In this document: positions 1-23,869 of the stretch, piece by piece | Numbering within the stretch: the first letter of the stretch is position 1 | Layout of the letters: each line of letters begins with the position of its first letter | Origin: Neodothiora populina | Lineage: Eukaryota | DNA: 64,000 nucleotides | Reading direction: 5' to 3' | Assembly (NCBI RefSeq): GCF_041146345.1 | Contig: NW_027191411.1 | Span: 1 to 64,000 of the forward strand | Notes under the pieces: generated by a model | Told to the model about the DNA's origin: nothing | Database searches by the model: none | What the model saw: the letters and a program-made list of their open reading frames with translations, nothing else | Position numbers and translations under genes: made by a program

Positions 1-1781
1 AGATCCATGACTAAGACTAAATAAAGATCCTTAAAGTCACTTTAAACAGAAAGCTCTAAATAGACAGCTATATCGAGAAAGTAGCGACAGCAGCCACAGT
101 TAAGTGTCTAACGCTAGCGAGACTAAAGGGTATACGCTTAAACCAAATACGGCAGCTGTATCGCTTAGTAATTATACCTACTACGGACTACGCAGCGTCC
201 TCCTAGTTCAGCAGAGGCAAGTAAGGAACAGAACGACACATTAATAAACTACAGCGAGTTTAGAAGCTAAGAGCCTAACTTGTAATAAGGTCTTTAAACA
301 AGTGTCAGCAGCAGTCCTCGAGGCAGAAGCCTCCCTCGAACTAATAACAGACAGACTAGTAAGGAAGGTAGCTAAACACCTGCAGACCATCTTCACAGCA
401 GAGGAGGACAATCTAGCGTAGTTAAGTATCCGTTACATTAAATTTAAAGGAGAAACATAGTAGTCCTTACTACACGGGACTTAGCGGCAGCATAAAGCGA
501 GATATACTTTAAAGAACAGCCCGACACAAATACCACTACAGCCGTGGATAGCACCTCCATAGCAAGACCGGTCCACTTAGTGCGTTGCAGATATAGATGA
601 AGTAAGGAGACAGCTACGTACAGCACAGAACTACGGGCCTGTAGTTTTATATACTAACGCTTCCGTACGGAATAAGGTAAGCAGGTGTGCAGTAGTAAGA
701 AAGGTCGGTTCGTCTACATTACAAGTTGTGGACAAGGCGACTATTAGATAAACTAAGACATGCTCGGTCCTATCTACGAAGCTATAAGCAATAAAGATAG
801 CGTTAGATTATATCCTTACCTTGCACGGTCCGAACTGTAAGTATGTGATTACTACAGACAGCTAAGAGGCACTTTAAGCTATAGTGAAGGGCAACGGTAC
901 TAAGCGAAGTAAGGAAGTACTTCAAGGTACCCTCTAAACGCTTCGAGACGCTGAACAGAGTAAACTTAACGTGACCTTTGTTTAAGTACTAGCACATACA
1001 AGAAATGCAGGAAACGAATGTGCTTATTAAGCTGCCTAGACTACTACAGAGACAGGCACGAAACCATTTAGGAACTCTAACGTCCGAATTAAAAAGAGCG
1101 GAGTAGTTTAAACACTCCTTATTAAGAACCTTGCAGAACAAAGGCGTCTAGAAGCTTAGACATTAAGAACAAATAGATAAGGTTAATACACATAGAGGCT
1201 AAATGCAGCTCTCCTAAATAAGTACACGCTTAAGCTCTACAGAGCGCTAAACTCCGAGCAAGCGGGTATTCTCGTACAAGTAAGAACGAACTATATTTAT
1301 CTCTAATCCTATCTAGCAAAGATTAAAGTCGAGGAAAGTAGTAAATGCGAATGCGGGCAGGAAGACAAGACAGTAGCTTACGTGCTTCTCCGGTGCTAGC
1401 GTTAAACAAGTATACAAGCAGAACTTAAGTAGATAGCAGGGAACAGATGAAGTAAATTGTCCTTTCTACTAGGAGGGTACAGTAAGAAACGAGAAATGTA
1501 CACAGATCAGCTAGTAGATAGCCCGCTTAAGTGGTGGAGACTGAATTTGAAAATAGTGAAAGCGACGGTCCGGTTTCTTTAACAGACAACCAGGATGGCA
1601 GCTATTCCTTCACAGCAACAGGAGGGTGGCGATTAAGGAACAAGGGGCGTTAGGGTTCTTCTTTTATTATCCGGGAGGCTAAGCAACAGACAAGAAAACG
1701 AGGGAACGACATTGGACAGCTCATACGGACGATAAGACCGTGAATAGCTTGATAGACTAATCAATCAATCAATCAATCAAT
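1..1781 (+). mobile_element. RIP-degenerated non-LTR retrotransposon (Tad-like LINE), 3' part: RNase H, CCHC finger and (AATC)n tail
   Basis: Stop-riddled plus-strand translation keeps RNase H motifs (FYTNASV ~646, ITTDS*EAL ~848, VLAHTRNAGNECA ~986) and a C-terminal CECG..TVAYVLLRC finger (1346-1396; His to Tyr fits CAC>TAC). TAA/TAG codons are in excess. It ends in an AATC tandem tail at 1759-1781. Confidence 0.88.
1759..1781 (+). repeat. (AATC)5 AAT tandem tail marking the LINE 3' end
   Basis: aatcaatcaatcaatcaatcaat read directly, about 120 nt after the end of the LINE ORF. Confidence 0.85.
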
Positions 1782-2452
1782 ACTGGGTAGGTCTAACACT
1801 GCAAGCCATATCTCACGCTCGTACGAAGGACTGTCGCGGTCTGGAGTTGCAGTGAACGCTAGCAGCTCTGCACGTGAGACATCTACGAGGTATGTATTCC
1901 AGCCAGTTCTCTTTAGCTAGCGATCATCATCTCTCTCGTATAAAGGCCTGATTAAATCTCGCTGCTCTTTAAGGGCAGCTTCGTGCTTTTCGTACAGACT
2001 GTAAATGTCTCGCTCTTAGCGTCTCTGTACTGCTTAAGTGTCATTTGTTCGTACGAGAATGTAATGAGAATCTAGCCCTAAGACGAATATCCTCTAACAA
2101 GACACTATACGCCAGGGTTCTTCATTCGGATCCTGTTGCTGTCGTACGGTTTTTGATGGACGACTATGCTTTTCAAATTAAGTCCAATTATGCTTCGTAC
2201 GGAAGTGTCTTTTTAATTGATGATCAGTACAGCAGATGTATTAACATCTCTCGCTATCAAGCCTGCACTGTAGACCATGTTGCTGTAGATACAGTACAGG
2301 GTCTGCGGTACTAAACTCTGTAGGTATACTAATACGAGTATTGTTATGTCGACTTAACAACAACGTACAATAATCCTTGATCGTACGAAGGTCTTCTCCT
2401 TTGACTTTGTGCTGTTTACTCCAGTGTGTATGAACTTGGTTTAGTCGTACGC
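1782..2452 (-). pseudogene. RIP-inactivated relic of a DUF3505/OrsD zinc-finger gene, the N-terminal region typical of fungal telomere-linked RecQ-helicase-like genes
   Basis: Minus-strand translation: VRLNQVHTHWSKQH...DPVLYLQQHGLQCRLDSERC*YICCTDHQLKRHFRTKHNWT*...RP...WRIVSC*RIFVLGLDSHYILV and later R*LKRTGWNTYL. It contains in-frame stops and frameshifts. Family recognised from motif pattern only. Confidence 0.65.
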
Positions 2453-2650
2453 TGTCACGGTTTGGTCGTTAACCACCGAGACACCTGAGTTAGTATAGGT
2501 CACGTGACCTATACTCCTGACTCGTGGCTTTAACGCCGTACTTCCCTGTCCTCGACCTCGTACTGTCTTTCCTCCCTTGTCTACGTCTCGTCATATAGCT
2601 TAGACCCATATCTACGTACTGATCTTTATTCCTGACTCCGAACCCTGACA
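2453..2650. mobile_element. Retrotransposon LTR (198 bp, solo or truncated)
   Basis: Begins TGTCACGG and ends CCCTGACA (TG...CA inverted termini). Contains a perfect 24-bp palindrome AGTATAGGTCACGTGACCTATACT at 2492-2515. No matching target-site duplication is visible (TACGC vs TTACC). Confidence 0.65.
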
Positions 2651-2811
2651 TTACCTGAGACGACAGCTTATATAGGCACGAGCTTACAGATAGCTTACAA
2701 ATTAAATCAAATCGAATCAAACCTAGAGGTTGAGTAGCAGGAAATATGTTAATGAGCCGTGTAGTGTAGTAATGTTGTAATTCCTGTTCTATTCCTTAAT
2801 TGCACAAAGAC

Positions 2812-4683
2812 TTATTCTAATCTACGATGAGTAGTAAGGTCCATGTTAGAAGACTTAACACGAGCCGTGCCCTTCAATACCTTCCACAGCACATAGTTAA
2901 AGATGTAGACCACAATACCAATGTACGATGTTATAAATTTCGTGAGGTCGAAATGTGGTATGAATGCAGGGTATCCTATGTTGAGCGGTCAGCATCAACC
3001 GATCGCGATAGACGTCATCACTTGCCGTTGAACACAATAACCAAGACGGTCATAACAAGTGCGAACCAGGCGCCATAAGGTTGCAGAATATCGGTGTAGG
3101 GCATTTCGGTGCGTGAGATACCTTGACACTTCATGCCATGTCGCATGCAGAGGTAGGAACATAAGATGCTGACCCAATTTAGAGTGCCGAAAACAGTCAC
3201 CAGACTGACAAAGTACCCAAACACAGTTGAAGATGACTTGCTAACGTTGAGATAGCCTAGAAGTATAAAGAGAGAACTGAGTATCACGCCATAAAGTGGT
3301 ACCCCGGTACTTGTGGTGCGACTGAATATTCGGGGTGCTTGTCCGTCTTTAGAAAGACCAAACAGAGTGCGGGATGCCACGTAGACATCTGATACATTTA
3401 GCAAAATCACATGTTAGTGAAGGATACATGGGCTACAATACCGGAGTTCGCTGCGCTAAGCACGAAGAACAGGAGTAGAGCGTTGATGATATCCGGCATC
3501 ACGTTGATCTCAGCAAGCTTGATCGCGATCACAAATGGAGAAGCAGCTAGAAGCACAGTAATCAGTAAAGCTAGAGCCTCTATACAAGGCCGTAGAGATG
3601 TGCATACCTGCGCTGGTCTTTGCTTTTGTTGCTCCGATTAGCATTGGGTCGTTGTACGGGACGCACATTCCTAGTAAGAACACAGCGAACATGTAGAAAG
3701 TCAGTATACGAAAAAGAGTTTGCCGCACCGCTCTTGGTACAGTCTTCGCAGGGTTAGGTGCTTCGCCAAAGGCAGCGCCAACAACTTCAGTCCCTGTGTA
3801 GGCAAAGCACGCCTGGACGATGCAAGCCCAGAAACCTAAGAATTTGCCAGTAGGCCCTTCGACCAGGTACTCAGCGAATGCGCCTGGCTCTCTCCAGTAC
3901 CTGAAACCAATTCGATCGTGTTTTGGGGCCCCTCCAAGAGTGATAACTAAACACACTAGTAGCAAAGCTGCCAGCACCAAAACCTTGACAATTGAAAACC
4001 AGAACTCGGCTTCACCGAACCATCGAACATGGAATACCTACAGTCGGATTAGTCGAACGCCGAGTAAACAGCAGTGGCATAGTGGTATTGCGGGGATGAA
4101 CAGATCAGTGTAACACTTACATTCAGAGCTACAATGCAAACGCCAAATATTGTGACCCAAATGGCCACATTGAGATCAGGACGCCAGTACTGAATGATAA
4201 TTCCTGCAGCCGTGAGATTGTTTGGCAGAACAATCACATACTTAAAGAAATAGTTCCAACCAGTAGCAAATCTGTTCGTATGTCAGTAGTAATTTTGGAA
4301 GCAGCACATGGACCATACCCAAAAATCACTCACCCCAAGGCTGGGTCGGCGAACCGAGTAGCGTACCCCGCAAAACCCTTCTTCATAGGCAAGAAAGCCG
4401 CCATCTCGCCCATAGCTGTCATAACAAAGTAGACGACTATGCCAATCGCAATATACGCGACAAGTAGACTACCAGGCCCACCACGAGCAAGGCCAGAGCC
4501 GGAGCCAATGATCAAGCCGGTTCCTATGGCACAAGCAATAGCAAACATGTCTACCTGGCGAGACTTAAGACCTCTCTGAAGATCATTACCAGTGTCCTGG
4601 TTGTCGATGATTTCACCCGTCTCAAGATCATTGTCAACGACGGTAGGTGTAAAGCCTACTTGTGCCTTCGTAGCAATGTCCAT
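2812..4683 (-). CDS. Amino acid permease (YAT/APC family, Dip5-like), multi-exon
   Basis: Exons encode LQRGLKSRQ..AIACAIGTGLIIGSG, GEMAAFLP, RFADPALG, GFRYWREPGAF, FAYTGTEVVG and SRTLFGLSKDGQAP. The last exon GYPAFIPHFD...HRRLE* ends at TAA 2812-2814. Confidence 0.9.
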
Positions 4684-4917
4684 TCTTTGCGATGCGAAAA
4701 AAAAGTATTGCTTGTCGAGTAGAGACTTAAAAAAGGCGAGCGATATAGATGAACTTGAATTGATGGAGGCAGGATAGTAGCATGGGACTCATTCAGGTGA
4801 TTTACTCCAGATTATAAATGAATCGTGGTCAAGCCATGCCTCCCGTAAAACCAATTCAGTCGATGGTCAGAACATTCTGATAAGTTGCCATGCCAAGTTC
4901 AGATGCCAAGTCCCGTG

Positions 4918-4973
4918 CGGAGGTCGAAGTCCGCATAAGAAAGAAGACGCATGCGCGTGGACATTGAACTCCG
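4918..4973. promoter_or_regulatory. Two CGG-N10-CCG-type sites in the permease promoter
   Basis: CGGAGGTCGAAGTCCG at 4918-4933 and TGGACATTGAACTCCG at 4958-4973. TGATAA lies nearby at 4878. Confidence 0.6.
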
Positions 4974-5657
4974 CAGATTGGCAAAGCCAAGAATGACAGG
5001 TATCTCAGAATCCAAAGATACGCAGGCGTTTATCATAACGGTTGTCTTGTGGGTTTGTCATAGGAATCACTTTCTAGCAGGGCCAAAGTTATTTGCGCTA
5101 GGTAAAATTGTTAAGTGTGAAAAGTTTCTGGCCTTCGCGATACCATACTTCTGCTTTGTCCGTGCTAAGTGACATTCTTGAAGATGTTGATAGTGTGCAA
5201 CGATGTGGTGACGACATAATAGCTACATAGTGTTCCATCTAGAAGACTTTGAGTCCTCAACCGCGGCATCACTATGTGACCGACTCGCAACCATCGAACT
5301 CACATTGTTCCATATTACAGCATTACTTCCGAATAAAGCCCCAAGGACTAAATGATTCAGACTGTTCAAGCTACTATTCGAGTCACAGAGGTACTAGGGT
5401 ATTAGTGCTACAATTGCCAAACCCAAACCTGAAGCACTTCAATGCTTCTACAAGCCTCTTACGGGTACAAATAAGATAGCTGCTTTAGATAAGACAACAA
5501 TGGTATATAACATGGTACATCTATATGTAATGTAAGCTCATACTTGTGTCCAGTACAAATAGCCAACGAGACACATATCATAGCGGAGCCAAGGTAGTAC
5601 GAGGCCCTAGATTGTCTAATCTTTACAAGCTTTGTACAGGGTTTATCCTAGGCATAT

Positions 5658-6808
5658 CTATATTTGAAGGTCATCGAACAGGCTGTGAATCGCTGTACCA
5701 TTGAGCCCTGTAGCTAGACCCAGCTGGAGCATGATTCGTGCCTTTTGAGGTGTTAAGTGCGCACTTGGAATTCTCCATGGGTCAGAGTCGGGGTAGGGAA
5801 CAAAGCCATTCATAGCACGTGAAGCAAAGACCATAGGGATCTTGGTGCTATTCCATACGTCTCGTGCAGCGTCCAGGACGTGCTCTGGTAGATCCCCGGC
5901 TCCAGTCCCAGCAAAGACAATTCCTTTAGCTCCAAGGTTCACCGACGCTTGGATTAATCCAGGGTTACTCTCGATGTGGGCATATAGAATGTCGACCATA
6001 GGTAGAGTGGTGAGGTTCAATGGAGCAATATCAAAGAATGGCTTTCCAACTGGTTGGGCAGGCTCGTAGTAGAAGTTGGCTGCTTGATTCAAGAAGAGAC
6101 CAAGATGACCTTGCTCTCGGGCGTAAAACGCATCAGGTACATTTGCGTGATTCTTCGATACATAAAAAGCACTTGTTATGCGGCTTCAAGCTATCAGATC
6201 ATTGAATATTGACTTATTAGGGTTGGGACGTACTCATTCAGCGTTACCAAAGTACCGCGGCCTACTGCTTTGGGGTTTACGGCAAGGCTGACCGCTTGAA
6301 ATAGATTGAGAGGGCCGTCTGCTGACAATGCTGATGCTGGCCTCATTGATCCCACGACTACTACCGTCTTAGCCGACTGGGTAGTAAGATCAAGGAAAAA
6401 TGCTGTCTCCTCCATCGTGTCCGTGCCGTGAGTAATAACAACGCCTTGGGTCAGATCGCTTGCAAGCTCGCTTGTCACGCGCTGATTAAGACGAAGTAGA
6501 ACCGTACTGTTAATTGACTGGCTATCGGTATTGGCAATCGCATATCCTACGAGATTGGCGACCGATATCAATTCTGGAACAGCGTTGACGAGATCCTGGA
6601 ATGTGGCGTTTGGAGTACCATAATTGGTCGTCTGTACGGAAGTCGAACCGGACTCAGCGATCGTGCCGCCAGTGGTAAGGACAGTAACATTGGCCAAGCT
6701 TTGGTTGAAATTCATTGCAGCATCTCGAAACACGATTGGGATGTCCCTTACGGCATGTATAGTGCCAGCAAGGACAAGGATGTTGAAGAAAGATCGAAGT
6801 AAAGGCAT
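5658..6808 (-). CDS. Secreted type II L-asparaginase (2 exons)
   Basis: Signal-peptide-like MPLLRSFFNILVLAGTIHA. Catalytic motifs TTGGTIA and HGTDTMEETAFFL, plus GSMRPASALSADGPLNL. The intron GTACGT...GAAG joins LND|RITSAFYVSK. C-terminal GAKGIVFAGTGAG and LTPQKARIML. Confidence 0.93.
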
Positions 6809-7005
6809 TGAATCTGAAGATGTTTGCACGTAAGATGAAGTGAGATGAGCTATTCGCCATTTGGACGATCCATTCATATAGTGTTGATACGTTTGCACAG
6901 ACCCCATCATAGTCGAGACATCTTGCACCTTACTTCGCTCACAATCTGTGTGACATCGGTGGCTGAACGATGTCCATGATCTATTCGCTTCTGTATCTCC
7001 GCCGA

Positions 7006-7021
7006 CGGACATTGAAATCCG
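7006..7021. promoter_or_regulatory. CGG-N10-CCG site in the asparaginase promoter
   Basis: CGGACATTGAAATCCG about 200 bp upstream of the ATG, with AGATAA at 7039. Confidence 0.6.
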
Positions 7022-7596
7022 TGACAATGACGTCTTCAAGATAACTTTGTCTTCTAGAACTCGGCGCCGATTAAAGTCATGGCAGCCAAGTCTGATCAAG
7101 TTGTTGCCCCGTTTAATCGCTCCTGATCGCTTGAGGCATACTTACTCGTTGATTTCGTCCGTTCTTTGAGATGCGGAGCGCCCACGAGCCAGATAGCACA
7201 TTCGAAGGATGTGGATCACAATGTGAATGACAAGCGCGTCGTGGGATAGTCTTAGAGATCGTTCCCAATTGTATTTTAGTGTAAATACTGTATAAAACTT
7301 GTTGATGAAACTACACCCGGACTGCTTTTATCTTGTAGGCATCTTCTCAAAGGCACAAGTAGAGGAAATCATATAGGTTTGCTGTCCATGAAATACAGAT
7401 CAGCCTTGACATTTCCGGACGGGGCTGTGAATATGGCAAGATATCCCTCTTTTTGACTCGGCTCTGGACGTCGTTGCCTCCGTATCACACCATTCACGTC
7501 ACAATTGAGCCCGGTCGCTTCGACAATCACTATGCTGTTGAGAGATTGAGATCTCGAACACAAATATATGGATCTATTGCTGTGCATGGACGGACA

Positions 7597-9893
7597 TCAA
7601 AACATGCAGTCTTCAAGCGGGTGTGTGAGTGTGCCAAGGGAAAATATGAAACCGGGAAGGTTGAATGACCCGTCGAGGGGATCGCCTGTGAGATCACTAT
7701 AGCCTTCCTCCATCAAGTTGTCGGGAGGTCGGGGGTCGGTATTGGCGTGTAAAGTCGTTCCACCTGTTTCGGCCGAACGTTCCAAGCGAACCTGCGAGAA
7801 GATTAGACACATACACAGAGTTTGATTCCATCCGACATACTTCTTGATGCTGACTGGACCGATTCGGCACTTGTTCTCCCGTTGTAGAGATGTCAAGAGC
7901 TTTTGAAGAGAGCTGATCGTGGACTTGTCTCGCGAACGCCCAAGCTTGACCACACGCTCGAAGAGTCTTCAGCAATACTTGAGAACGGGCGTGGTGGTGC
8001 TCCTGAGACGATTGGAGTTCTGACCGGCTAGCCAATCTTTGGCTGCTATGGATGGCCACTGCAGTAGCATAGATCATGATGACTGGTGGACGAAAGATTC
8101 TCGATGATGACATGATTTGCCTCAGAAGCTGTGCAATGTCTTCGATCAATTCATCACTGGTCTTGTGGAACAATTTCTGCTTATCACAGTCACCGGAACG
8201 ACCTAGTAGTTCTTCGAGGACACATAATCTCAGCGAGAGATAGTACAAACTGAAAGGAACTAAGTCAATAGTTCGAACAATGAGGGACAAGGATTCTTAC
8301 TGCAGAAGGAAGACGTGATTTGATGTTGACGGCGCTTGAGATTTCCATCGATTCCATCTCAAGGTACTGTCAAGGTTATTGTGCCATCTGCAAAGCGATA
8401 AATCAAACCTTTGCAAAGCTGCGACTGTTGTTGTAGAAGACCCGCTCAAACTAGATTGTACAGTGAACACGTGTAATAGTAGTTGATGACATATCTTGCT
8501 CAACCCTCCTAAGCCCTTGAAAAAGGGTATAAGACGTGGAATCTGCTGGTCCTCGGTCTCATCCGGGAGCCATGCCATCAGCGTTACGTTGTCTCTTCGA
8601 TATGTTAGTTGATGGATCCTTTCGACGATAAATACAACTGACGGTAATTGCTCGCTCGGGCTGACTGCAGCGTCGAAATCCTGGAAAAACACAGGTCTTC
8701 CTAGTAGCAATGCGATCATGCTTGCAATCGTCAGCAGTCCGAGTCTGTAGAAAGAGGAATGCAAGATGCTTCACCTGTCAGCAGTATAGCACCCCCAGTA
8801 TATACGACGACGAATCTCCGAGTCGAGCTCCGGAATTGAGCGCCCATCCTTAGAACGCCCTGCTTGGCCATCATACTGGAGTCCGATGTCCTGTAAACTG
8901 CGAAAGGCCATACCTTGCGAAGGTTAGTGTCATAAAAATAAGGCTGGCATGTGTAAGATAACCGACCAGAAAGCAGCCAAGCTTTGGATATGTTTCCCAC
9001 GGCAAGTTCACCAAAGGCAAGGCAGAGAAATGTTTGAACAGTCGTCGAGTTGACCTCGAGTGTCTTCACAGTCGAGATGTTCGCGTATGACTTCTTCATA
9101 AAATATGTCACTCTGTTATGGTTATCGCCCTTATCAGGTATACAGCCTAAAGCACATATAGAGTAGATGAGAGCAAGAGAACAGTAGCGGCCCTGATATT
9201 CGTGGTTGAGGTAGTCGAGCAAGAGAGCTTCTCGATAGAGGAACATGTACTCAGGATATTGCCACCGGAAGAACGATCGCAGAATCTCATCGACATCTGG
9301 TTCTTCTGCATTGATGGTGCAATAAAGAGATGGTGTAGTAGACTGCTGGGTCAACGTTGCACCTCTCTGGTCGCAAACGCTCCCGAAGCGATATATGCTT
9401 GTTGGTCCTTGATACGAAGTACATGTTCGCGACGATGTGTTCAGGCGAACGTTACCCGCGCGTACCTCTCGATGTTCAATCGTAGCATTCGCATCCGGTT
9501 CCAGAGTCCGAGGTTCCTCACACACACTGAGTATACCTAGAGGGGCTGTGTTTTTGTCGGCCAAGCCGCTTGACTGTGCATCACGAAGTGCTTCCTGAAG
9601 AGACGCTATCTGTTGTTCCAGGGAGGTAACGTAATGCTTGGACACTGGTATCTTACGGCCATCTTCTTGCCTATACTCACACTCGTGACCCGCTTTCGTA
9701 CAACTGGCACAAGGAATCGTGCGAGAGCATCTTAGCTGGATTCAGTCAGTCGATACTGCTGCAAATGAGGCACAACCTCAAACCTTGCGTTGCTGGCATC
9801 TCTTGCATCTAGTCTGAGATTAGCTATCGAAGTCTCCGGACAGGAGTGGTCATACGAAATCCTGCTGTGCCTGGAAGGCTCTGCAGAGCTCAT
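7597..9893 (-). CDS. Zn(II)2Cys6 transcription factor with fungal-specific TF (middle homology) domain, multi-exon
   Basis: Spliced N-terminus MSSAEPSRHSRIS|CKRCQQRK|LRCSRTIPCASCTKAGHEC gives all six Cys. Downstream FFRWQYP..FLYREA and LLLGRP motifs. The 3' end at 7597 assumes a final intron. Confidence 0.85.
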
Positions 9894-10099
9894 TCTGCTA
9901 CGAGGTGTGCAGGGTTTGCCCGAGTCAATGGATCTACAGAGTGAGCGGATGGTCTGGGGAAACCTTCCATTGGTCGAGATGTGTGCTTAGTGCCAAGACA
10001 TGTGAAGAGGGACAAGCGGAGTTTGAACTCCGCACCAAAGAAACACTTCACGGCCTGGGAGACCGTCACAATCAGCCAAGCCATTGCAAAGCTTGAGAG

Positions 10100-10285
10100 C
10101 GGACATTGAAGCTCCGAATCTGGACTCTAACCACGCCGAAAAGCATCGGTTTTCATCCTCCGAGTGATAACATTATTAGTCAATGATTTTATTGGATAAT
10201 GCGGTAATGGGATGCACGACGCGCTGATCACATGGATCTATGAACGGAGGGCAGCGATAGTGAGGATGTCGGTCTTCATGCTCCG
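10100..10285. promoter_or_regulatory. Three related CGG...CCG sites in the divergent TF/PLP-enzyme promoter
   Basis: CGGACATTGAAGCTCCG 10100-10116 (N11). 10147-10162 reads CGGAGGATGAAAACCG on the minus strand and 10270-10285 reads CGGAGCATGAAGACCG on the minus strand. TGATAA at 10165 and 10398. Confidence 0.65.
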
Positions 10286-10432
10286 CCCTCAGTCGACAAT
10301 GACACCTGCTTACTCTGGACATCTTGGGTATGGCGTTGAGTATCCAGCAGGATGCAATATAAACATCGAATGCTCCCTCGCTTTGGCCCTTTGTAGATGA
10401 TAATCTGATCACGCTGATCGTCTGATACTACG

Positions 10433-11656
10433 ATGTCCACTCAGACCACTTCCATTACGAGCAAAATTTCTCTAGCCTCAAGCGCATATGATGTAGAAAA
10501 CTATCGCAGCCTTGTCCCTGTCGTGGCAGAAACCGACATTCTCTACTTGAATGCTTCTTACCAGCCACCCATGAACATCAGGGTACGCCGCGCCATTGAT
10601 GGTTATCTTGACGAAGCGCTCCATGAACCTCATCCAAAGCCCATGTGGCAAGCTTCTGGCGAGGAGACGCGTGCCTTGGTTGGCCGCTACATTGGCGCTC
10701 CCCCCGAGTCCATCGCCTTCACTAGTGATACAACAGAAGGACTGAATCTCTTCCAAAGGTCCCTGAATCTTGGCAAAGGCGATAACGTTGTCGTTCTTGA
10801 CACAGAGCATCCGAATCATGCTTACGGCTGGCTGGCATTACAAGAAACTGGTCTGGAGGTCCGCCAAGTACCCACAAACGATCGACTGTACGCTGATGCC
10901 TCGACCTTTGCCCCCTTTGTTGATGAGAATACAAAAGCCATCGGCATTTCGTCAATCATGTTCCATTCTGGCCAAAAGAACAACGTTAAGGATATCTGCG
11001 ACCACTTCAGACCACGTGGTATCCACGTTCTAGCGGACATAACCCAGGAAGTTGGTGTCGGACCCATCAACGTTACGAGGACTGGGGTATCAGCTGCCTG
11101 TTTCAGTTTTCATAAAGCTCTCGGGTGTCCCACCGGTCTCGGAGCATTATATATCAATCCTGTGGTTCTCGAACAAATAAAGCAGACTCCACCGATTGTA
11201 GGGGCGGGTGCAATCTCAAATCTTCGTGCAGATCTTCTCGCCATGTCGGGTCCGTTGAAATGCCACAAGACAACAAAGCGATACGAGCATCTGAATCTAT
11301 CCCTTATCTCTCTCTGCGCTGCAAATGCTGCTCTGAGACTTCTGCTTGATGAGATGACTCCGGAAGGCGTTGAAGCTCATTTACGCTCGCTGGGAAGAGT
11401 ACTACAGGATGAGTGCAAAGCTCTGGGTATCCAAATCATTGGTGAAGAGGACGAAGCGAAGCGTGCTCCTCATCTCTACGTATTGAAGCTTTTAGATCTG
11501 GCGTGGGCCGAACACTTCTCGAGGAACTCGACGTATGTCAGTTGCTACCGTCTTGGTGTAAGAGTTTCTCTTGGATTTTATAATACTGAAGCAGACATAC
11601 GGAAGCTCGGAGTTGTGCTTAGAAAGGGTCTTGAAATGGGCCTTCCGGCCTGTTAG
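10433..11656 (+). CDS. PLP-dependent class-V aminotransferase-fold enzyme (cysteine desulfurase / C-S lyase / CefD epimerase-like), intronless
   Basis: 407-aa ORF with YLNASYQPP, IAFTSDTTEGLN, GDNVVVLDTEHP, ADITQEVG, SFHK (PLP lysine) ALGCPTGLGALY and RVSLGFYNT. Confidence 0.85.
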   Translation: MSTQTTSITSKISLASSAYDVENYRSLVPVVAETDILYLNASYQPPMNIRVRRAIDGYLDEALHEPHPKPMWQASGEETRALVGRYIGAPPESIAFTSDTTEGLNLFQRSLNLGKGDNVVVLDTEHPNHAYGWLALQETGLEVRQVPTNDRLYADASTFAPFVDENTKAIGISSIMFHSGQKNNVKDICDHFRPRGIHVLADITQEVGVGPINVTRTGVSAACFSFHKALGCPTGLGALYINPVVLEQIKQTPPIVGAGAISNLRADLLAMSGPLKCHKTTKRYEHLNLSLISLCAANAALRLLLDEMTPEGVEAHLRSLGRVLQDECKALGIQIIGEEDEAKRAPHLYVLKLLDLAWAEHFSRNSTYVSCYRLGVRVSLGFYNTEADIRKLGVVLRKGLEMGLPAC

Positions 11657-13930: not shown

Positions 13931-15355
13931 AGCTCTGAAGTGCAAAGGGACTTCTGACTAGACCGTGAAGAAAAATGGCAGAAATGAATGGTGTTGAGGA
14001 CAAAGACGCGGACATGCTTCTACATTTACTTTCCTAGAACAATGCACATTGTGAATCCCCATTCAACAAATCATGGGGCGTTGTTGGCTGCAGCTAAAAC
14101 GCGGGGGTCTGGACCACAAATTACGGTTTAGCCATTAGCTTATACCTATCTGAGATTGTATCACCGTGGCGGAACTCACCAAAACCCCCGCACGTATGAG
14201 CCAGGGTATCGGCCAGGATCATGCGCTAAGTCCAGCTTGTCGGGACGAGAGAAGCGCTGCCGCAACGGTTTTTTGATGATCCGCTTTAGACCTGTAGCAG
14301 GCAAAGACGCCGTTTCTACAATCCCGAGGATCGAATGATTGATTACCAACGCCACAAGAGGAGCAGCGGATGTCGATGAAGTGGGATGGCAATGACGCAA
14401 CACACTTCGTCCGATCAAAGCTTAAGGTAAGTAAGGTAGACATTTGTGCACCTTACAGGTACAGTAAGAACTTTCATGCTTACAGAGACTACGAACAATT
14501 GCGTCTCGTAGGCATAAGTGCAAGTATCGTGATTTATCATCAACCAACCTAGCATCATCTTACACATAGTGAACATAAATCTCACTTCCATCCTAGTTCG
14601 TGAGTAGCAGGCATTGCTCGCGCAGCAAATCATACGCTACCTCTTCTAGACGATCTCGGACCGATAGGCCCAGCAAGTGCGGGTCTCGCGTGTACGTTTC
14701 CGCTACGTCTATCTTCTGTGAACAGTTGAATAAAAGGCAGTTGACGCATTTTTCCGTTGTTAGAAGTTAATTGTGATGCTTGATGTATTATTCCAAAGCG
14801 CGACTCGTCTTCTTATAGAAAAAGTGATATACCTGATCGAAGAGCATTCTTCAGGGGTAAGTTCATGACTTTTGTTCTGTGGTAGTTGATAAATGTATAG
14901 GCAAATGAATACTGTATGTGTGACTAAATCAAGAATAGCCAAGTTCAATACCACTTCAGACGCCACTACTGTAAACATATGACAATACTTAAGGAATCTC
15001 AATATCGATAGCTAATTAGTGACGCCTGACCAAGCGATAGGCAGCGGAGGAATCTCCGGAACATTGTATGATCAATCTCGATCCTTAATAGCAACAATTG
15101 GGATCCTATTTAAGCAGGCTTAGGTAACATAGTACGAATGTCTTGAGGATTAGACCTATTATATGTACTAGTCTTCGCTGTAAGCACATTAGGAACGGCA
15201 AGGAACGTCTTTCAGCAGCCAGGACTAATCCTCGTCCAGAGAGCACATAGTTACAATAGTCCTTAGTTGATATCGAGCCTTATCGAAAAGACCGAATTTT
15301 TACATATTGTTTTTTTACCGAATTCGTGAATAACTAATCCACTTTTCTTATTGTG

Positions 15356-16926
15356 CTATACTTGTTGATACACAGACTCTGCCTTGCGAAGTGGTGCTGC
15401 AATTGCACCTGTATCGAAGATGTCAGTCATTTCTTCAAGAGTATAACCCTTAGTCTCGGGATAGAACAGATATGCCGTGACCCCAAAGATACATAGTACA
15501 ACAATGAAAACAATGTAGTACTTCCAGCCAATGTTGTCGAGGGCGATCGGGTTAATAAAAGTATTGAAGAAAATGGCACTGATAGTGGAGACCCAAGTGA
15601 CTGTGAGACCGCGAGATCTCAGGCTGTACTGCCAGATCTCGCACGGGTATGCAGTCAGGAAAGGTGTTCTGAATATGTTAGTCGGGATCAAAACATCTGA
15701 AGTGTGTAAACTTACAGAGCAATATCGTAACCAGCAAAGAAAAGGAAGAGAAAAGGGATAACAGCGAGACCTGTTGCAGACTGTCCAGACTCTGCAAAGG
15801 CGCCGGAAAGTCCAGTAACTAGACCAAAGCTTATGGTCATGATCGTAGCAGAAACCAAAAACATCGGCCTGCGACCAATGCGATCGACGCAGAATGCGGC
15901 TATGATCGACCAGATGAGATTCCAGACCTGAAGGCATGCGGATATCATCGTCTGATCACTCGAGCTGGTGACACCGACGGTCGTCAATACAAGGGCCAAG
16001 TAGTATGACACGACACCATTGCCGGTCCATTGAGCAAAGATCCCAAGACTTATCGAGATGAACAGACGCTTGCGATTTCCGGGAGTCTTGATCATGTCCA
16101 TGTATCCCGCGCTGGCATATGCTTTTTGTTCTCTCTGGATGGCATTGGTGATTTCGGTCATTTCGGCACGGATCAATTGTGAGTTAGTATCACCGCCAGC
16201 ATGGAATCTGACCAGAATTTCTCGCGCTTCTTCAGTACGTCCGACAGATATCAGCCACCGCGGACTTTGTGGTGCCATCAAGAAGCCGGGTAGAGCCATA
16301 AAGGGTACCAGGGCTTGAAGTAGTGATGGTATGCGCCATGCCCAGGAGCTTGCCATGTCACGAGTACCAAAGGTGATCCAGGCGGCCAAAGACCCTCCAA
16401 CATACCATCCACACATGAATAATGCATTAGCAATGCTTCTTTGTGTTGGATATGCGATCTCGTTGATAAGTAGCGGAACGCAATTCCCAAACCAAGCTGC
16501 CGCGATGCCGACGAAGAAACGAGCTAGCAGAAAAGCAGTAACGTTCGGTGCGGCAGTCTGCAATGCTGCTGCAAGGATGAGGAAGAGGTAGCCCGCATAG
16601 ACACCAGCTTTACGCCCCCACTTGTTTGCAACGTAGGCTGCAATAGGGTATGTGATACCACAACCTAACCAATAGATTGCATTGATGAAGCCTAGCCATG
16701 CGCCTTTTGGCTCCTCAAAATAGCCGGTCCATTGATGCAAGGCTTGGAGGCCGTTCATGAGTGATCCGTCGTAGCCATTGGCCGAGGAGAACAAGACGAG
16801 GGAAACGATTATGAAGTTCAATTTCAAAAGATGGCTGCTCTTGTACCAGGTAGGTGCAGAAGAAGTGAGCTCCAAGTCCTTCACTGTAACAATCCCAATA
16901 GCTGAATCCGATTTCTCGTCAGTCAT
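15356..16926 (-). CDS. MFS sugar porter, lactose permease/cellodextrin transporter-like (2 exons)
   Basis: NGYDGSLMNGLQ, KWGRK, LINEIAYPTQR, WAWRIPSLLQ, PQSPRWL, FAQWTGNGVVSYYL and YPETKGYTLEE. Confidence 0.9.
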
Positions 16927-18074: not shown

Positions 18075-18532
18075 GTGTGCAAAAATACGAAAAGCTTCAC
18101 AGTAGCTGAGATTTAATTCACATTGATTCCATCGTCTGGTCGTATGATTTTCGGCAGCTTGTCGGGCTGCCAATATTTCTCTTGGAATCCTGCCTTGGCC
18201 CAGCATTCTCTGGAGACTTCTTCAAAACGTCTCGAGCGAGGTTCTCACAATTCACGTCTTGTCATGCACGTTTGTGTGACTATTTCAGTCTTTGTCTGAA
18301 TATCCATACATTCACCGGAATGTTCATTCCGTAGTTGACTTTGACGTTCGCAGTTTGCTGAAGTTCTCAAATACGAGACTATAACTGTCGGCTGTGTTTC
18401 TTCACTTAATTAGATCTTGGCCAAGCTGGAAAACACTTGGGTCCGAACCAAATCAGTGGATCAATGACTTAGCTGTGCGATCAATGTGAATTGAACCTCA
18501 GCTACTGGGAAGCTTTTCGTATTTTACCACAC
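18075..18532. repeat. Imperfect ~53-bp inverted repeat pair about 350 bp apart
   Basis: The reverse complement of 18075-18127 (atcaatgtgaattaaatctcagctactgtgaagcttttcgtatttttgcacac) matches 18480-18532 (atcaatgtgaattgaacctcagctactgggaagcttttcgtattttaccacac) with 5 mismatches. Confidence 0.85.
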
Positions 18533-22580: not shown

Positions 22581-22972
22581 CAACAGGGCTCGGTAGACAT
22601 TTTGTTCTGTCCATCTACGCGGTCGTTACAGTAGAGATCGGGAACACGATCAGATCGAGATCGATCAGGTAGTGTGATGGCAAGGACCGAGACTCTCGTG
22701 TGATGCGACCTGGCCATACAGTAGCATGCATGGCAAGAGATGTAATGGTGGAGTCGAGAAGAAAGGGAGAGCGCCTGCCAAGACACGACCCGGCGGCGTC
22801 ACTTCCAAATGCGACACATGAATTGTCTTCCATCTTTCCTTCTTGATTTACTTCTCTCTATACATTCTGTCAAGCGTCGCTCACTGCCGTCGTGAACTCA
22901 TCCAGATACACCAGTCATGTAATTCATCTGCCCGTGGATTCAATACGCAATGAACAACAGCCTCCAGTCGCC

Positions 22973-23869
22973 ATGGACGGTGCCTTGCGGTTGATCGCTC
23001 CACTGCCGCCGTTGCAGCCAAGGCAGTCGCAGTCGTCGCCGCCTCAGGACACTCACGACAGTTCCCACCCCAACGCAGCGCCCTTTCACACTCCCGTCTC
23101 CTCTGCTTCCACTTCCACTTCTGCCTGCTCCTCGCCTCCACACGACGTCCAGAGGTCACTGACGAGTCCCTTCTCCTTCCGGAGCTCCAGCTCCCGCTGG
23201 CTCGCCATCACCCACCGCGTCCCCTCGTCGCACTCGGCCTTTCTCTACGGCGTCAAGTCCACCAAGATCTATTGCCGCCCCACTTGCACTGCGCGTGTCG
23301 CCAGGAGGGCCAATGTGGTGTACTACGGTTCACAGGACGAAGCGCGTCGCGACGGGTTCAGACCGTGCAAGAGATGCAGGCCCGACGATGAGACGTTTGT
23401 CGGGGACCGCGAGGAGATGGTGGAGAAAGTCCTGACGCTTCTGCGGACACAAGAGATGGCCTCGACGGGCAAGGGAGGCCTGAAAGAGCTGGCCAAGCAG
23501 GCGGGTGTCACGCCGAGCTATCTCTGCCGCGTCTTCAAGTCCGTCATGGGCACCACGCTGGGCGCGTACATCAGTACATTCGAGTGTCAGGCCAAGCGGG
23601 ACGAGACACAGATGGCTCTTGACTCGTATAGCGAGAGCAGCAAGAGTCGCTGCGGCAGTGCATCGATTGGTGCGGGCGAATCAACAAGCCCCCTGACGGC
23701 GGTCGCTTCGGTGCAGAACCCATTCTCGCCAAATACAGACGATTTTGATCACTGGCCGGTAGATGGACAGTCGGCGCAGTTTCAGGACATGCTCGACCTG
23801 GACTTGGACGTGGATTTCGAGGAGTGGATATGGACCGCAGATTTCCCGCCTCCGAGCAATTGCAAATGA
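22973..23869 (+). CDS. Ada-like protein: Ada Zn-binding (methylphosphotriester repair) domain plus AraC-type HTH, intronless
   Basis: GVKSTKIYCRPTCTARVARRANVVYY...GFRPCKRCRP keeps all four Ada Cys, followed by LKELAKQAGVTPSYLCRVFKSVMGTT and an acidic C-terminus. The first ATG is at 22973. Confidence 0.88.
   Translation: MDGALRLIAPLPPLQPRQSQSSPPQDTHDSSHPNAAPFHTPVSSASTSTSACSSPPHDVQRSLTSPFSFRSSSSRWLAITHRVPSSHSAFLYGVKSTKIYCRPTCTARVARRANVVYYGSQDEARRDGFRPCKRCRPDDETFVGDREEMVEKVLTLLRTQEMASTGKGGLKELAKQAGVTPSYLCRVFKSVMGTTLGAYISTFECQAKRDETQMALDSYSESSKSRCGSASIGAGESTSPLTAVASVQNPFSPNTDDFDHWPVDGQSAQFQDMLDLDLDVDFEEWIWTADFPPPSNCK

Follow-up and report, generated by a model that had tools for sequence, protein, structure and literature searches.

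Organization of the cluster and its promoters

The first 64,000 nucleotides of contig NW_027191411.1 of Neodothiora populina (assembly GCF_041146345.1), hereafter the window, carry near their left end four adjacent genes encoding an amino-acid permease, a type II asparaginase, a Zn2Cys6 transcription factor (TF), and a class V pyridoxal phosphate (PLP) enzyme. The gene models of all four are open. A 16-base motif with two inverted CGG triplets was found at seven sites in the promoters of these genes, between positions 4918 and 10285 (Table 1). Five sites match the strict pattern with a 10-base spacer (N10), which has no other match in the window; the remaining two are variants, one with TGG as the first triplet (4958) and one with an 11-base spacer (N11, 10100).

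An earlier examination of the letters alone (the sequence-only reading) had listed six sites of a CGGA-N4-GAA-N2-CCG motif. All six were recovered at the same coordinates and on the same strands, and the spacer conservation it described, A at position 4 and GAA at positions 9–11, was seen in each of them; however, its list had overlooked the strict site at 10017–10032. It had also spoken of three promoters. The sites do lie in three intergenic regions, but these serve four genes, as the TF and PLP enzyme genes are transcribed divergently. The densest group, four of the seven sites, is found at this divergent promoter.

The distances from the sites to the start codons were 124–401 bp overall (124–377 bp for the TF and 148–401 bp for the PLP enzyme), and in three of the four promoters, TATA-like words separate the sites from the ATG. 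Inverted CGG triplets are bound by Zn2Cys6 homodimers, according to the accessible parts of two sources (PMC5215518; bioRxiv 10.1101/2024.08.20.607873). The motif takes the corresponding form, an inverted pair of CGG triplets with constant spacing, and it is enriched in promoters that belong to one coherent set of genes, where it precedes the core promoter. The sites are imperfect palindromes in which GAA forms the inner part of the better half; one better and one weaker half-site is what would be expected for homodimer binding.

Table 1. Genes of the cluster and motif sites in their promoters (window coordinates).
Feature	Position	Strand	Remarks
Amino-acid permease gene	2812..4683	-	6 exons, 520 aa model; PF00324 on three exons
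Type II asparaginase gene	5658..6808	-	2 exons, 366 aa; PF00710 and PF17763
Zn2Cys6 and Fungal_trans TF gene	7597..9893	-	7 exons, 664 aa; one exon with PF04082 and a partial PF00172
Class V PLP enzyme gene	10433..11656	+	Intronless, 407 aa; PF00266
Strict site	4918..4933	+	235 bp upstream of permease ATG
Site with TGG first triplet	4958..4973	+	TGG replaces CGG; 275 bp upstream of permease ATG
Strict site	7006..7021	+	198 bp upstream of asparaginase ATG
Strict site	10017..10032	+	Nearest to TF start; 124 bp upstream of TF ATG, 401 bp upstream of PLP enzyme ATG
N11 variant site	10100..10116	+	11-base spacer; contains the 10-mer common to all three regions
Strict site	10147..10162	-	Divergent TF/PLP promoter
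Strict site	10270..10285	-	148 bp upstream of PLP enzyme ATG; TATA-like word at 10358

Non-randomness and local restriction of the motif

The pattern was picked after looking at the sequence, and CGG-N10-CCG occurs 16 times in the window, so that chance clustering had to be weighed. The motif being defined post hoc, the shuffle test took the best of spacers 0–15 in either orientation. When the three regions were dinucleotide-shuffled 5,000 times, the best spacing gave at most three sites, and at most two sites shared four spacer positions, compared with five observed in both cases. With none of the 5,000 shuffles reaching the observed count in this any-spacing, any-orientation test, chance is effectively refuted and its probability negligible. 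CGG-N10-CCG also ranked first among 1,152 (64 × 18) inverted dyads, with 5 occurrences observed and 0.25 expected (p = 7e-6 before correction). For the six N10 sites, each tested against a matrix derived from the remaining five, the scores were 16.7–21.8 bits; elsewhere in the window, none of 110,040 background positions came up to this level.

One 10-mer is present in all three regions, a length of shared word that was equaled in 9 of 3,000 resamples. This identity, together with the degraded, TpA-rich transposon-like DNA that adjoins the cluster at the contig end, would also suit relics of duplicated promoter DNA or of a small mobile repeat that are not under selection. However, the seven sites have unrelated 20-bp flanks and the identity is confined to the dyad, which indicates that the sites are not part of a larger repeat, and the 13-base core pattern has a single occurrence in the genome. 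Such an origin is therefore very unlikely.

In the 24-Mb genome, the strict pattern gave 38 matches at 36 positions, compared with 43 for the reversed control. Thus, the genome-wide scan proposed in the sequence-only reading detected no overall enrichment; what it revealed was clustering restricted to this cluster, a purely local signal. Five of the 36 positions fall within the 2.3 kb of intergenic DNA of the cluster, where about 0.003 would be expected. The 31 strict sites outside it were retrieved, 28 with 1.5 kb flanks and three with about 5 kb, and no second relaxed site was found near them in the fetched loci; 23 of the 28 checked fall in open frames of at least 100 aa. Looser patterns had 5 and 18 matches genome-wide. 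Among 11 outside matches of this kind that were fetched, nine scored 16–20 bits and were single sites, mostly in long open frames. Taken together, these data support the conclusion that the inverted-CGG element is non-random and restricted to the cluster.

Several other candidates were considered. Two perfect palindromic matches (C2:1371865 and C4:224754) were rejected as remote targets, both being inside long open frames. Two paralogous type II asparaginases had no matrix match of at least 11 bits in 10 kb, and a near-site upstream of the asparaginase paralogue on C6 was discarded with a score below 11 bits. Two near-identical methyltransferase-like genes, one on C2 near the contig end (L032:5625-6380) and one on C18 (L140:2807-3559), explain two chance motif matches. 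GATA sites were not denser in the three regions (3.8–5.6 per kb) than in two neighboring intergenic regions (4.2–5.9 per kb).

The sequence-only reading had placed the end of the regulon at the PLP gene, having seen no N10 site upstream of the adjacent sugar porter. This was borne out: the region upstream of the sugar porter contained no N10 site and no matrix match of at least 10 bits, and the next genes to the right, which encode sugar transporters, also lack sites. A lone near-perfect CGG-N10-CCG inverted repeat was located at 18316–18331, in the divergent sugar porter/major facilitator superfamily region; its score with the cluster matrix is under 10 bits, and it may be the site of a different factor.

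Cluster genes and linkage in other fungi

The TF has a complete six-cysteine cluster, split by an intron, followed by a linker, a coiled coil, and the Fungal_trans domain, as in Gal4-type activators. Its homologues form 47 clusters with 30–38% identity, mostly from Sordariomycetes; they carry PF00172 and PF04082, and the zinc-cluster recognition loop and the linker are conserved among them. Some homologues, in Fusarium, bear the database label “TY1 enhancer activator.” Put3, Tea1, and Cha4 use N10 spacing and Gal4 uses N11; structures of Put3 are available (PDB 1ajy, 1zme). A literature statement of N10 spacing for Put3, Tea1, and Cha4 was searched for and not found. The likeness to Put3 drawn in the sequence-only reading holds for the spacing only. 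In comparisons with the DNA-binding fragments in the PDB, the window exon gave similar weak matches to Put3 and Gal4 (E 0.03–0.09), as did a TF orthologue (E 2e-5 and 3e-5, respectively). According to Pfam, the genes flanking the TF gene do not encode proline-catabolic enzymes.

A signal of linkage between the TF and the PLP enzyme was observed in 12 of the 47 TF homologue clusters. In five gene models, a PLP part at the N-terminus is fused with the TF, and seven TF homologues sit on contigs equal in size to that of a PLP homologue, equal size being taken as a proxy for linkage; two of these have consecutive locus tags. In Aureobasidium pullulans, the closest asparaginase homologue (68%) and a PLP homologue occur on short contigs in the same accession-prefix ranges (P0376, P0059, P0496), possibly from the same few isolates, which provides a lead only. 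As for orthologous promoters, two metagenome scans returned no fungal locus, the 24-Mb genome had no relatives for comparison, and a second organism's sequencing run yielded seven low-depth records near-identical to the window, the listed pieces of which cover no motif site.

The permease may resemble the dicarboxylic amino-acid permease Dip5. Its last intron (3025–2976, minus strand) is apparently of the GC-AG type, as no other donor combined a good splice consensus with the complete 520-aa frame. At window position 4697, in a poly-A tract upstream of the permease ATG and outside the motif, the contigs of run X1 are one base short. The best NCBIfam match of the asparaginase is asnASE_II, with exon 1 only and below the cut-off; its hydrophobic N-terminus suggests that the enzyme is probably secreted. 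The genome has three further asparaginase-family genes.

The cluster starts directly beside the transposon-like DNA at the contig end (window 1–2700), where the TpA/ApT values are 2.14 and 1.48 compared with 0.74 in the cluster, consistent with repeat-induced point mutation. Elsewhere in the window, 22847–23869 encodes a protein that combines an Ada zinc-binding domain with an AraC-like helix-turn-helix.

The class V PLP enzyme and its bacterial homologues

Named fungal homologues of the PLP enzyme are 51–73% identical to it, the closest being those of Delphinella and Aureobasidium. The predicted fold is SufS-like (pLDDT 87; template modeling score about 0.79 to SufS), and the comparison was nearly tied between SufS/CsdA, C-DES, UstD, kynureninase, and PvdN (Z 38.6–40.5, root-mean-square deviation 2.5–3.0 over 358–370 residues), with merely 13–21% sequence identity to these neighbors. 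The Schiff-base lysine K228 and the residues H126, D202, and R377 are conserved, as in class V PLP enzymes. Matches in the ESM Atlas have generic names alone. Among yeasts, Wickerhamomyces ciferrii and Kwoniella bestiolae also have homologues (P0171, P0173); Wickerhamomyces is presumably the donor genus of yeast ASP3. In a quick, midpoint-rooted tree with long branches, the fungal clade was well supported; the tree carries no claim on donor or direction of transfer.

When prokaryotes were first scanned with the fungal alignment, just two marginal matches came up. With a Streptomyces homologue as the query, 323 bacterial loci were retrieved, of which the best 80 were examined within 5 kb. The bacterial proteins, among the matches listed, are about 34–41% identical. 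K69, W72, H126, H178, D202, R283, R373, and R377 are invariant across 117 fungal and 79 bacterial sequences, and the sharing of K69, W72, H178, R283, and R373 suggests that the fungal and bacterial homologues have one function.

Glutamate/aspartate-type binding proteins or GltP/DctA-type symporters were present in 66 of the 80 loci. Other neighbors included aspartase (7), asparaginase (4), and serine hydroxymethyltransferase (SHMT)-like (11), alanine-racemase-like (5), and formaldehyde-dehydrogenase-like (4) proteins, and the regulators were of the IclR (46) and GntR (10) families. The bacterial layout thus mirrors the fungal one, with a regulator, the enzyme, an acidic amino-acid transporter, and at times an asparaginase. 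In Streptomyces loci L044 and L047-L049, the PLP gene is directly upstream of aspartase and divergent from an amino-acid ATP-binding cassette transporter. Pseudomonas locus L046 contains two close PLP copies (7983–9128 and 14037–15362), whose neighbors are an asparaginase gene, an alanine-racemase-like gene, and genes for an IclR regulator and a dicarboxylate symporter.

Databases label this cysteine-less NifS-fold family, which is common to fungi and soil bacteria, as cysteine desulfurase or generic aminotransferase. It could accordingly be supposed that the regulation is as proposed below, but that the cluster scavenges nitrogen from ordinary L-asparagine, the PLP enzyme being a generic cysteine desulfurase or selenocysteine lyase; the best sequence and fold matches are indeed SufS-type, and the asparaginase has nothing unusual for type II. 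However, the position of the persulfide cysteine is not conserved (P in 68, H in 21, and C in 12 of the 117 fungal sequences, and P in 73 of 79 bacterial homologues). The enzyme scores 102 with the NCBIfam sufS model, whose cut-off is 475, and all desulfurase models are far below cut-off. No iron–sulfur assembly genes were seen among 36 annotated bacterial neighbor clusters, and the three other asparaginase-family genes argue against L-asparagine scavenging. We therefore regard this explanation as improbable.

A fission-yeast cluster, SPCC777.02/.03c/.04, may be comparable. The NifS-like genes SPCC777.03c and SPAC11D3.10 resemble each other, and their deletion caused no substantial drop in ergothioneine, as stated in the available part of the source (PMC4020840). 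SPCC777 was absent from the main text of a TF atlas preprint.

Proposed regulation and substrate

We consider it probable that the cluster's own TF uses the motif as its activating site, within a self-regulated module for the catabolism of an aspartate- or asparagine-like amino acid. The identity of the binder, the activation, the feedback, the inducer, and the enzyme reaction are inferred here. A Zn2Cys6 homodimer would contact the two CGG triplets 10 bp apart, with half-sites extending inward. On sensing its inducer, the TF would activate the permease, asparaginase, and PLP enzyme genes and its own gene. The autoregulation predicted in the sequence-only reading is supported, and is strengthened by the site it had missed, 124–139 bp upstream of the TF ATG. 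The asparaginase would remove the amide nitrogen, the permease would import the acidic amino acid, and the PLP enzyme would convert it by beta-cleavage of the side-chain carboxyl or by racemization.

A number of observations weigh against this proposal. The two variant sites (N11 and TGG) may have little or no activity. Outside the cluster, the nearest approach to a pair is on C5, where two strict sites are separated by 1.6 kb, and one match of 16–20 bits is clearly intergenic (C5:683033). No linkage signal was seen in 35 of the 47 TF clusters. For the asparaginase, none of 120 homologue clusters had a contig equal in size to one with a PLP enzyme or TF record, in a test that is weak because each cluster is represented by its longest contig; the asparaginase may thus be a lineage-specific addition. 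In bacteria, the binding-protein match (277 bits) and the symporter matches are below NCBIfam cut-offs, and the 80 loci are not independent, being the best of 323 and Bradyrhizobium-heavy. Finally, there are many other Zn2Cys6 genes in the genome, with 33 matches to the TF orthologue.

The last point also favors functional sites bound by another Zn2Cys6 factor encoded elsewhere, for example, of the proline/Put3 or nitrate/NirA type. N10 is the Put3 spacing, and the CGGAG/CTCCG half-site, present in six of the seven sites, is like what we take to be the NirA core. However, the full NirA consensus, as we assume it to be, has no occurrence in the three regions. A distant regulator should have further targets, whereas the motif clusters nowhere else, and the sites are densest at the TF's own divergent promoter. 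An outside factor is thus unlikely, though less so than promoter relics.

Within the proposed regulation by the cluster's TF, a non-standard substrate is likelier, since L-aspartate needs no dedicated pathway. D-asparagine/D-aspartate leads, with somewhat less than an even chance, because yeast asparaginase II takes D-asparagine and the bacterial D-aspartate module combines a transporter, a converting enzyme, and aspartase. Cysteine sulfinate or another compound is a distinctly weaker candidate, 3-hydroxyaspartate or 3-hydroxyasparagine is weaker still, and L-asparagine/L-aspartate is the least likely of the four. The aspartase neighbors favor racemization, whereas the fold neighbors and the alanine-racemase neighbors favor beta-decarboxylation; UstD beta-decarboxylates L-aspartate, and its PDB title reads decarboxylative aldolase. 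The SHMT-like and formaldehyde-handling neighbors would fit a conversion of 3-hydroxyaspartate to serine.

A more far-reaching version is doubtful and offered tentatively: the motif may define a fungal D-asparagine/D-aspartate regulon, the cysteine-less NifS-fold family may be an aspartate racemase or beta-decarboxylase, and the asparaginase gene may have gained its site and so joined an older TF–PLP core.

The results join four genes into one small candidate regulon and predict a specific site for an uncharacterized TF family of Fusarium, Colletotrichum, Trichoderma, and others. They also suggest that a class V PLP family with generic labels, present in both fungi and bacteria, acts on an acidic amino acid. 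Regulation of this kind is ordinary and textbook-like; the enzyme family is more interesting. Cluster-specific Zn2Cys6 sites as such are well known, while this particular site and regulon appear undescribed. A targeted literature search turned up no such cluster, which is weak evidence of absence as most subscription journals were outside the search, and none of the D-asparagine papers listed dealt with one, judged by titles or the beginnings of abstracts.

Comparison with known systems

The cluster is similar to the Gal4-type activator systems (Put3, Gal4, Tea1/Cha4) in the fixed-spacing inverted CGG triplets, the six-cysteine cluster, the linker, and the coiled coil, as well as in the putative pathway-specific amino-acid catabolic regulon. 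It differs from Put3 and Gal4 in its other target genes, its strongly constrained spacer, and a TF linker one residue longer.

The PLP enzyme shares its fold with the beta-cleaving class V PLP enzymes SufS/CsdA, C-DES, UstD, kynureninase, and PvdN, but differs from them in its own invariant set of K69, W72, H178, R283, and R373.

In Acinetobacter baylyi and Aliivibrio fischeri, the D-aspartate module DarR/RacD/AspT/AspY/AspA consists of a regulator, a dicarboxylic amino-acid transporter, a converting enzyme, and aspartase, as described in the accessible part of the source (PMC13631041). The bacterial loci of the PLP homologues share this layout. For the fungal cluster the resemblance is an analogy only: according to Pfam, neither RacD nor a LysR-type DarR is found among the cluster genes. 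The regulator is Zn2Cys6 in fungi and IclR, GntR, or LysR in bacteria, with a class V PLP protein in place of RacD as the enzyme.

Yeast asparaginase II (Asp3) hydrolyzes both L- and D-asparagine, according to the available part of the source (PMC1342634). Asp3 and the cluster asparaginase are both type II enzymes and both secreted, the latter by prediction; unlike Asp3, the cluster enzyme belongs to a four-gene putative regulon with a dedicated motif, and by analogy it may act on D-asparagine.

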